Positions 62,973 to 63,848 of a stretch of 64,000 nt of DNA are shown one piece after another. Source of the stretch: Escherichia coli (GTDB lineage Bacteria > Pseudomonadota > Gammaproteobacteria > Enterobacterales > Enterobacteriaceae). A program made the translations under genes and the position numbers. Each line of letters starts with the position of its first letter. Position 1 is the stretch's first letter. Where the stretch lies: NCBI RefSeq assembly GCF_029227855.1, contig NZ_CP074356.1. The stretch is one strand, 5' to 3'. Under the pieces are notes generated by a model. The model did no database searches. It saw only the letters and a list, made by a program, of their open reading frames with translations, and was not told the origin of the DNA.

Positions 62973-63122
62973 ATTGCGCTCCTGATTGTTGCAGGTAGTG
63001 TCTCTCTTCGAAGCGGATAAGTCAAAAACATATATGACTTAACGAATGTGTAAGTGCAGAGGAAGGTAATAGGTGTGAATTTTGAGTTGGCTATTCATTT
63101 GAAAGGAGGTCTGAATCAGGAC

Positions 63123-63210
63123 GTAAAAAAACCGACTTTGCGTCGGTTTTTTACTTTCCAGCCCTGAGTTGGTGGCTCTGGCTGGAGTGAGAGAGTTCTT
63201 ATCTAACAGC
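63123..63210 (-). ncRNA. agrA: AgrA-like small RNA (dinQ antisense family); boundaries approximate
   Basis: First of two about 85-bp direct repeats sharing a hairpin/T-tract and CCAGCCCTGAGTTGGTGGCnCTGGCTGGAGTGAGA; position between arsR and dinQ. Confidence 0.4.
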
Positions 63211-63353
63211 TCAATACTATTAGCCAGTGGCTAACATTGTAAGAATTAGCGATTTCTTCAGCTGGCGGAGGGGGCACTTCGGTATATATCGCAATGACGA
63301 TTTATATACTTTCACTGGGTCATCGTCATATTACGCCTTGTCCGAATCCGGAT

Positions 63354-63440
63354 GTAAAAAAACCGACTTTGCGTCGGTTTTTTACTTTCCAGCCCTGAGT
63401 TGGTGGCACTGGCTGGAGTGAGAATGCCATTATCTAACGC
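63354..63440 (-). ncRNA. agrB: AgrB-like small RNA (antisense regulator of dinQ); boundaries approximate
   Basis: Second repeat copy. Its segment CTGGCTGGAGTGAGAATGCCATTATCTAAC matches the dinQ upstream sequence at 63608-63640 with a single mismatch. Confidence 0.45.
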
Positions 63441-63711
63441 ATCAATGCTAATACCATACTGAAACTATTGCAAGGACATGCTGGTTTTATAACCTGAATG
63501 TACTGTATGATTATCCAGTTAGCTCTGAGGCATTTTCACTCTGGTAATGCGCATAAACGCTTTCAAAGTCCTGGTCAGAAGTACGGGTGGTGCCGTTAAC
63601 TGATGCTCTGGCCGGAGTGAGAATGCCATTATCTAACAATAGGGCATGCGCCGTGACAGGCAGTGGATGAGTAAGCGGATGCATTCTCACTCCATCGCAT
63701 GGAGAAAACGG

Positions 63712-63795
63712 GTGATTGATAAAGCAATCATCGTTCTTGGGGCGTTAATTGCGCTGCTGGAACTGATCCGCTTTCTGCTTCAGCTTCTGAACTGA
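63712..63795 (+). CDS. dinQ: DinQ type I toxin peptide (27 aa, GTG start)
   Basis: Encodes VIDKAIIVLGALIALLELIRFLLQLLN, a single-TM peptide matching DinQ as recalled; located between the agr repeats and gor. Confidence 0.6.
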   Translation: MIDKAIIVLGALIALLELIRFLLQLLN

Positions 63796-63848
63796 TAGCG
63801 GAAACGTAATTAAGGGCTAAGAGCACACTACTCTTAGCCCTTTAACAT

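Follow-up and report, generated by a model that had tools for sequence, protein, structure and literature searches.

Matching of the dinQ leader to either of two agr small RNAs differs between Escherichia coli strains

Introduction

Why does Escherichia coli keep AgrA? The type I toxin-antitoxin locus dinQ-agrAB encodes one toxin, DinQ, and two paralogous antisense small RNAs (sRNAs), AgrA and AgrB, and deletion of agrA in strain K-12 gave no phenotype that could be found (PMC3567139). The question has been open since 2013. It is raised again by the dinQ-agrAB locus at the end of a stretch of 64,000 nucleotides (nt) of an E. coli chromosome (contig NZ_CP074356.1 of RefSeq assembly GCF_029227855.1), which is called the window below. 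The locus itself is already known and is textbook material. What stands out is the partner wiring in this allele, in which the dinQ leader matches the sRNA at the K-12 agrA position, and which would give the question a simple answer.

The working of the locus has been established in K-12 (PMC3567139, PMC5066626). The dinQ promoter is overlapped by an operator at which LexA represses the gene, and DNA damage gives rise to a primary RNA of ~330 nt that is translationally inert by pairing of leader elements 1 and 2. When the first 43 nt are lost, element 2 can bind element 3, and the Shine-Dalgarno sequence is released for translation of DinQ. A constitutive, divergently encoded sRNA of ~84 nt uses its 5' part to pair with nt +88 to +119 of the leader, including element 2, and once it is bound element 3 re-closes the Shine-Dalgarno hairpin and translation is blocked. 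AgrB, complementary at 30/31 positions, is the sole copy that binds and represses the +44 dinQ RNA and counteracts toxicity, whereas AgrA, complementary at 25/31, neither binds nor represses it (PMC3567139, PMC5066626). The primary inactive transcript was repressed by both sRNAs and the +44 form by AgrB only, and inner-membrane localisation and toxicity of the K-12 DinQ peptide have been demonstrated (PMC3567139). SOS control, processing, toxicity and the structural switch are taken over here from these experiments.

Pairing of the agr sRNAs with the dinQ leader

Two agr sRNA genes lie on the minus strand of the window, divergent from dinQ on the opposite strand. The distal, arsR-proximal gene (63123..63206) is the positional orthologue of K-12 agrB and is base-for-base identical to it, and the proximal, dinQ-proximal gene (63354..63437) is the positional orthologue of K-12 agrA. 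Both match the Rfam AgrB family (RF02891; gathering score 40) over its full length, with 108.4 and 104 bits respectively, which bears out a first-pass annotation of this DNA, made from the sequence alone, that had read the repeats upstream of dinQ as antisense agr genes. Each sRNA is predicted to fold into a 20-nt free 5' tail, a stem-loop 1 and a terminator (z-scores −4.0 and −6.0), and the specificity core of the proximal sRNA (63424-63431, sRNA nt 7-14) falls within the 5' tail, which is predicted to be single-stranded. The locus has three copies of a 33-nt sub-repeat (63175-63207, 63406-63438 and 63605-63637), the third of them inside the dinQ leader, where it contains the antisense target (63605..63636, plus strand; nt +88 to +119 of the dinQ 5' untranslated region, UTR) with a variable core, ATGCCATT, at 63623-63630.

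The window and K-12 differ in which sRNA matches this target. In the window the distal, proximal and target cores are GAGTTCTT, ATGCCATT and ATGCCATT, whereas in K-12 they are GAGTTCTT, TAGCCATC and GAGTTCTT, so that the leader matches the proximal sRNA in the one and the distal sRNA in the other; the proximal sRNA core itself is AATGCCATT in the window against ATAGCCATC in K-12 agrA. Pairing was counted over the 32-nt sRNA/leader interaction and duplex energies were predicted. In the window the proximal sRNA forms 30 Watson-Crick pairs, no G-U pairs and 2 mismatches with the target (−53.6 kcal/mol), in comparison to 26 Watson-Crick pairs, no G-U pairs and 6 mismatches for the distal sRNA (−41.3 kcal/mol). 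The corresponding values in K-12 were 31 Watson-Crick pairs, no G-U pairs and 1 mismatch for the distal AgrB (−58.2 kcal/mol), and 25 Watson-Crick pairs, 4 G-U pairs and 3 mismatches for the proximal AgrA (−42.7 kcal/mol).

The extended complementarity to 5' UTR nt +88 to +119 by which a type I antisense RNA is recognised is thus found in the proximal copy, at 30/32 positions. The near-full distal complementarity of K-12 (30/31 there) is absent from the window, where the distal copy is complementary at 26/32 positions with its mismatches in the 5' tail. A 30-nt segment of the second repeat had previously been noticed to match the region upstream of dinQ with a single mismatch, and this match was recovered exactly (63409-63438 against leader 63608-63637); over the full 33-nt repeat unit the second repeat and the leader differ by 2 mismatches. 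The expectation of an agrB/dinQ duplex held in that a matching repeat exists, but the repeat that matches dinQ is the agrA orthologue and the agrB orthologue is mismatched. The sRNA/target mismatches sit at sRNA nt 7-14, inside the predicted free 5' tail, a region that probably matters most for initial contact.

Because of this pairing pattern, and by analogy with the K-12 experiments, the antitoxin job in the window strain would fall to the dinQ-proximal sRNA. The unstructured 5' tail of this sRNA carries an 8-nt core that complements the leader core exactly. The distal AgrB orthologue, mismatched in the manner of K-12 AgrA, would then be a weak regulator of the +44 mRNA or none.

One mismatch is nearly universal across haplotypes and species: a target C (63613; leader CTGGCCGG) stands opposite an sRNA A (63414 and 63183; agr genes CTGGCTGG). 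The two bases are each paired within their own molecule, the former in the leader 1:2 helix and the latter in sRNA stem-loop 1, and this intramolecular pairing may explain why the mismatch has been retained.

Putative promoters could be placed upstream of both sRNA genes on the minus strand, for the distal gene at 63214..63242 (−35 TTACAA at 63237-63242, 17-nt spacer, −10 TAGTAT at 63214-63219) and for the proximal gene at 63445..63473 (−35 TTGCAA at 63468-63473, 17-nt spacer, −10 TAGCAT at 63445-63450). Both hexamers of the proximal promoter are present in 11/11 compared haplotypes that retain the proximal copy, bar one base in the −10 of O157. In the distal promoter, position 63240 (plus strand) is T in the window and C in K-12 and all other haplotypes examined, which turns the −35 from TTGCAA into TTACAA. 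An exact 57-mer carrying the change was found in 6/3840 genomes, which equals the number of genomes with 100% identity to the window over the region. The change may be a down-mutation in the promoter of an unused distal copy.

A contrary reading is that the K-12 wiring has been retained, the distal AgrB orthologue still being the acting antitoxin despite its 6 mismatches and the proximal match being incidental. This would agree with the identity of the distal copy to the proven K-12 AgrB and with the duplex of −41.3 kcal/mol that it is still predicted to form with the leader. However, the free 5' tail of this copy contains the six mismatches, it is no more complementary to the leader than the failing K-12 AgrA, and in the window strain its own promoter carries the −35 change just described.

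Core alleles and wiring in E. coli genomes

The wiring was surveyed in 5,426 complete E. coli genomes, in which target alleles were counted by allele-specific 48-mers. Haplotypes were taken from an evenly spaced sample of 5,468 matching records, with one representative per identity class, and the three cores were extracted from each. The target matched the proximal copy in the haplotypes of the window and Eco_24-2013 (distal GAGTTCTT, proximal ATGCCAT(T/C), target ATGCCATT) and in those of isolate 624 (GAGCTCTT, ATGCCATC and ATGCCATT, in the same order), FDAARGOS_1290 (GAGCTCTT, TAGTCATC, TAGTCGTC) and O157:H7 (ATGCCCAC, ATGCCATC, ATACCATT). It matched the distal copy in the K-12 haplotype (GAGTTCTT, TAGCCATC, GAGTTCTT), AR_0372 (GAGCTCTT, ATGCCATC, GAGTTCTT), MN06021 (ATGCCCAC, TAGCCATC, ATGCCCAC) and strain 746 (ATGCCCAC, ATGCCATC, ATGCCCAC). 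All nine two-copy haplotypes from complete genomes had one copy with at most 2 mismatches to the target and another with 3-6, the better-matching copy being the proximal one in five and the distal one in four, and several of the single core differences among haplotypes are G-U-compatible.

Among the 5,426 genomes the window type of target, ATGCCATT, was the most frequent (2231 genomes, 41%), followed by the K-12 type GAGTTCTT (1682, 31%), a fused allele described below (813, 15%), TAGTCGTC (418, 8%) and ATGCCCAC (about 248, 5%), and these five classes together cover ~5,392 genomes. Four core alleles exist, and the target nearly always matches one resident agr copy. By composite queries, the window-type target was accompanied by the exact window proximal core in 1664 genomes and by a one-base (G-U) variant of it in 561 more, so that 2225/2231 genomes with this target have a matching proximal copy. 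The K-12-type target was found with the exact K-12 AgrB core in 1497/1682 genomes, and the other genomes are roughly as numerous as would be expected for the GAGCTCTT variant of the AR_0372 class. Overall, wiring to the proximal 'agrA' copy occurs in ~49% of complete genomes in comparison to ~36% with distal wiring.

A further, independent sample comprised 70 gut and environmental metagenome contigs, of which only those with two copies were counted, because short-read assemblers can collapse the 231-nt tandem repeat and leave single-copy or fused contigs uninformative. The 28 two-copy contigs were divided into 13 with proximal wiring, 13 with distal wiring and 2 without a cognate copy. With these contigs included, every one of the eight combinations has been observed, the distal core being of type 1 or 4, the proximal core of type 2 or 3 and the target matched to one or the other copy. 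This natural set of matched and mismatched sRNA/target pairs, with four cores in eight combinations, could be used to measure how many 5'-tail mismatches abolish antisense control.

That the target core covaries with the proximal copy in nearly every genome of the window type speaks further against a retained K-12 wiring, which we regard as quite improbable. The sequence of the locus, its covariation in the population and the analogy with K-12 make it likely that the proximal copy is the functional antitoxin in the window strain, and the explanation as a whole, that of a dinQ-agrAB locus with the proximal copy as acting antitoxin, can be held with high confidence.

Several observations nevertheless weigh against this assignment. 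The 2 mismatches of the proximal sRNA comprise the near-universal C/A and a U>A change by which stem-loop 1 of this sRNA is weakened as well. The distal copy keeps 17/18 of the 3'-most interaction nt paired, has a substantial predicted duplex energy and may exert some regulation, and in K-12 AgrA affected the level of the primary transcript (PMC3567139). Two metagenome contigs (L027 and L065) carry a leader core that matches neither resident agr copy; these may be chimeric assemblies or genuine orphan-toxin haplotypes. Finally, the agr promoters are putative, since they were placed by visual inspection and homology, with the sRNA 5' ends and K-12 as register, and a consensus promoter scan of the region found none of the three expected promoters, returning just the gor/dinQ hairpin.

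Structural variants and direction of change

Some of these points would fit a division of labour in which the proximal sRNA blocks translation of the +44 RNA and the distal sRNA acts on the primary transcript or tunes RNA levels. Repression of the primary inactive transcript by both K-12 sRNAs, with that of the +44 RNA left to AgrB (PMC3567139), is in keeping with this, as is the retention by most E. coli genomes of two copies with intact promoters and terminators. On the other hand, ~13% of complete genomes (estimated from sampled rows) manage with a single agr copy, having lost exactly one 231-nt repeat unit; E. albertii and Escherichia sp. E1V33 also appear to be single-copy; and the K-12 agrA deletion was without phenotype (PMC3567139). 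We consider a contribution of both sRNAs unlikely, if less so than a retained K-12 wiring, and prefer the proximal sRNA as the acting antitoxin. In the single-copy E. coli representatives (L008 and L009) the remaining copy matches the target when G-U pairs are allowed.

A scan of one genome per GTDB species bears on the direction of change. In E. albertii and Escherichia sp. E1V33 the single agr copy sits at the proximal position and matches the target, and in E. whittamii, which has two copies, the match is with the proximal one and includes two G-U pairs. The proximal copy being the matching one in all three species, proximal wiring is therefore probably ancestral and the distal wiring of K-12 derived, with the reservation that these are draft assemblies in which repeats may be collapsed. 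The K-12 AgrB wiring would then probably have arisen when the 33-nt repeats recombined or underwent gene conversion, and would have been kept by selection for at least one cognate antitoxin. On balance we lean towards a general picture in which AgrA is no dead paralogue: three repeats with four alleles allow the toxin mRNA to be wired to either sRNA, the proximal wiring being commoner and probably ancestral and that of K-12 derived. Antitoxin identity would then not be transferable by gene name or position from K-12 to most E. coli, including the B1 lineage of the window strain and O157:H7.

The fused allele (813 genomes, represented by EC958 and SCU-387) is the product of a repeat-mediated deletion, with the loss of 199 nt between the repeat of the proximal agr gene and that of the leader. 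Both promoters, that of agr and that of dinQ, are gone together with the LexA box and leader nt 1-87, and the agr terminator and stem-loop 1 are joined to the dinQ leader from nt +88 onward. The resulting core, TAGCC|CAC, is chimeric and therefore points to a parent with the proximal core TAGCCATC and the target core ATGCCCAC. Judged by their sequence, fused-allele strains should be silent for both dinQ and the agr genes, and with both promoters lost they would be natural double knock-outs. In SCU-387 and EC958 the upstream neighbour is arsC, not arsR.

Identity and layout of the locus

That this is the chromosomal dinQ-agrAB locus is beyond reasonable doubt, because the toxin matches the DinQ equivalog, both sRNA genes match the Rfam AgrB family and the region aligns collinearly with K-12. 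Of the 5,426 complete E. coli genomes, 5,422 matched the 911-nt stretch 62950-63860 and six were 100% identical to it, among them CFSAN029787 and NCTC8623, and RefSeq annotates arsR, dinQ and gorA at the matching region. Alignment to K-12 MG1655, a check proposed in the first-pass annotation, is gap-free with 98% identity over the 911 nt, and the K-12 order gor, dinQ, agrA, agrB, arsR is preserved in the window. Differences from K-12 are concentrated in two short patches, one being the proximal agr core and the other the leader target core with its 3' flank. The LexA box, the leader elements and the dinQ open reading frame (ORF) are all collinear with K-12, with little or no sequence difference in the LexA box and in elements 1, 3 and 4.

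The placement between arsR and gor was likewise confirmed by the flanks of the RefSeq genomes that are 100% identical across 62950-63860. The arsR ORF (62619..62972, minus strand), annotated as arsR in such a genome, forms the left flank of the intergenic region, and a C-terminal ORF fragment of gor (63849..64000, minus strand), annotated as gorA in the identical genome, runs off the window on the right. Between dinQ and gor, an inverted repeat at 63812..63842 forms a hairpin common to the two convergent transcripts that would act as their terminator, and it received a terminator-like call on the minus strand in the terminator/promoter scan. The putative dinQ terminator of K-12 has been placed directly 3' of the gor stop codon (PMC3567139).

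The distal and proximal agr genes are held in two direct repeats of 114 nt (63109..63222 and 63340..63453), identified by repeat search, which are 88% identical to each other, are spaced 231 nt apart and each carry the hairpin AAAAAACCGAC-TTTGC-GTCGGTTTTTT. Two direct repeats with hairpins had been recognised in the first-pass annotation, but their length had been put at about 85 bp, a figure that fits the internal sRNA genes of ~85 nt. It might be argued that these are repetitive extragenic palindromic (REP)-like or terminator repeats unrelated to agrA and agrB, accompanied by a small ORF that arose by chance, as the hairpin, with a T-run behind it, resembles a terminator and reads alike on both strands. 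Against this, both copies are full-length Rfam AgrB matches of more than 100 bits, the ORF matches the DinQ equivalog, and RefSeq annotates dinQ here in matching genomes, with agrA and agrB annotated as well in K-12. A REP-like origin can practically be dismissed, and the repeats are agr genes, as the K-12 alignment and Rfam both indicate.

Two further candidates were set aside. An extra agr locus elsewhere in each genome was suggested by alignments at a 'second place', which is most simply explained if repeat 1 aligns off the diagonal with repeat 2; genomes of the single-copy and fused types align at one place only, and one two-copy class likewise shows one place. A minus-strand ORF antisense to the dinQ leader (63511-63684, 57 amino acids, WP_001296816.1), which RefSeq/PGAP annotates as 'hypothetical protein' in window-type genomes and not in K-12, had no NCBIfam match and is a probable annotation artefact.

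The dinQ gene and its leader

The dinQ coding sequence (63712..63795, plus strand) begins with GTG and encodes a peptide of 27 amino acids, VIDKAIIVLGALIALLELIRFLLQLLN, with a single hydrophobic helix (RefSeq WP_001295215.1). It matches the NCBIfam equivalog NF041472 (toxin_DinQ) with 54 bits against a cutoff of 30 (E = 1.4e-14), in agreement with the earlier identification of a 27-codon GTG-initiated ORF for a single-transmembrane peptide as dinQ. Its coding sequence differs from that of K-12 by one base, which is synonymous, and the peptide is identical.

The LexA operator TACTGTATGATTATCCAGTT (63501..63520, plus strand) is identical to that of K-12, where its heterology index is 4.83 (PMC3567139), and overlaps both the dinQ −10 (TATGAT, 63506-63511, plus strand) and the transcription start. 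A LexA box had been anticipated here with the pattern CTGT-N8-ACAG; the operator is present, but it reads CTGT-N8-CCAG and the literal pattern is not found. It conforms to CTG-N10-CAG, a pattern with 31 matches within the window that is uninformative alone, and the call rests on identity to the published K-12 site. With an operator overlapping its promoter, dinQ is a predicted member of the SOS (LexA) regulon, LexA binding being likewise predicted.

Transcript positions were predicted by laying the K-12 leader numbering (PMC5066626) on the window with G88 at 63605, and the landmark bases U16, C28/U, U44, G88, G94, A119, U167, U178, A182 and G187 all agree with the window letters. The primary transcript would run for ~328 nt (63518..63845, plus strand; +1 at 63518), with the U44 processing site at 63561. 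In the same register, element 1 (63533..63545) pairs in the inert +1 RNA with element 2 (63611-63623), which lies within the antisense target, while element 3 is at 63684-63695 and element 4 with the Shine-Dalgarno sequence at 63699-63704 (GGAG at 63701-63704), all on the plus strand. A perfect 13-nt complement, found as an inverted repeat, joins 63614-63626 and 63681-63693. Predicted minimum free energy folds contained the 1:2 helix in the +1 leader and the 2:3 helix in the +44 leader. The predicted energy of the 1:2 helix is −32.9 kcal/mol in the window in comparison to −24.8 in K-12, and that of the 2:3 helix, a perfect 13 bp in the window, is −25.2 in comparison to −20.3 kcal/mol; the window allele lengthens both switch helices relative to K-12. 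Partition-function folding of the whole leader did not cleanly separate Shine-Dalgarno accessibility in the +1 and +44 states and was not used as evidence.

The variable core also forms the 5' arm of a leader hairpin with the loop CUAACA (63623..63647, plus strand). The 3' flanks of the target alleles read AATAGGG (the one that goes with the core ATGCCATT), AATGAGA or AATGGGG, and folding of the four target alleles with RNAfold showed that the hairpin is kept in all of them by compensatory changes. Each target allele is therefore a coherent haplotype with co-adapted parts, and more than a patch copied from an agr gene.

Comparison with known systems

In the zorO-orzO/zorP-orzP and ibs/sib systems, antisense differences of a few nt decide which sRNA represses which toxin mRNA, and the modules are duplicated with one toxin per sRNA. 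The window locus differs in having one toxin and two candidate sRNAs, either of which the leader may match depending on the strain.

The tisB/istR-1 system is, like dinQ, an SOS type I system of E. coli with a LexA-controlled small membrane toxin and an inert primary mRNA that needs 5' processing, and its antisense RNA, which is encoded divergently, binds in trans to the 5' UTR ahead of the ribosome binding site. Its sequences are unrelated to those of dinQ-agrAB, and it has one antitoxin RNA instead of a paralogous pair and is not known to choose its partner by allele. The analogy of tisB/istR-1 to dinQ has been drawn before (PMC5066626).

The closest relative is K-12 dinQ-agrAB itself (Weel-Sneve et al. 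2013, PMC3567139; Kristiansen et al. 2016, PMC5066626), which shares with the window its site, gene order, orientation and terminators, as well as two paralogous sRNAs of ~84 nt with a free 5' antisense tail. E. coli and Shigella matches have been described as 'almost 100% similar' to MG1655 dinQ (PMC5066626). According to T1TAdb, AgrA can sit between DinQ and AgrB, and the more stable duplex was chosen where two antisense RNAs were predicted, so that cases with the partner at the agrA position may have been handled there without comment. No description of a strain-dependent choice of dinQ partner was found in the searchable literature on dinQ and agrA, the coverage of which is incomplete.

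The dinQ-like (dql) genes of Enterobacteriaceae (Kristiansen et al. 2016) have the same leader architecture and a similar peptide, whereas the window locus is the true dinQ at the arsR-gor site and not a dql paralogue. Leader cores homologous to that of dinQ were found in Serratia, Pantoea and an Enterobacteriaceae genome. The dql leaders and agr-like copies in Citrobacter amalonaticus (L092), Serratia (L089), L093 and Pantoea (L095) carry the core variants ACACCATC, CAGCCTTC, ACATTATC and ACATCATC, and with these further variants the specificity core therefore diversifies beyond Escherichia. The agr-like copy of Citrobacter adjoins a LexA-like box, CTGTATATTTATCCAG.

Other elements in the window

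An ldr/rdl system had also been noted in the window. It was recovered as three Rfam matches to rdlD on the minus strand with a periodicity of ~483 nt (10021-10086, 10504-10569 and 10987-11052) and three tandem plus-strand Ldr ORFs of 35 amino acids, MTLAELGMAFWHDLAAPVIAGILASMIVNWLNKRK, ending at 10242, 10725 and 11208, which together span 10021-11208. K-12 presumably has a single ldrD/rdlD at this site. The triplet adjoins a long minus-strand ORF at 11295-12974. Other Rfam matches at the gathering threshold were GadY (46235-46348, minus strand), the ES205 sRNA (52127-52198, minus strand), RtT RNA (1796-1929, plus strand) beside a tRNA (1685-1758), and two REP-derived naRNA4 elements (2023-2104 and 34709-34779).

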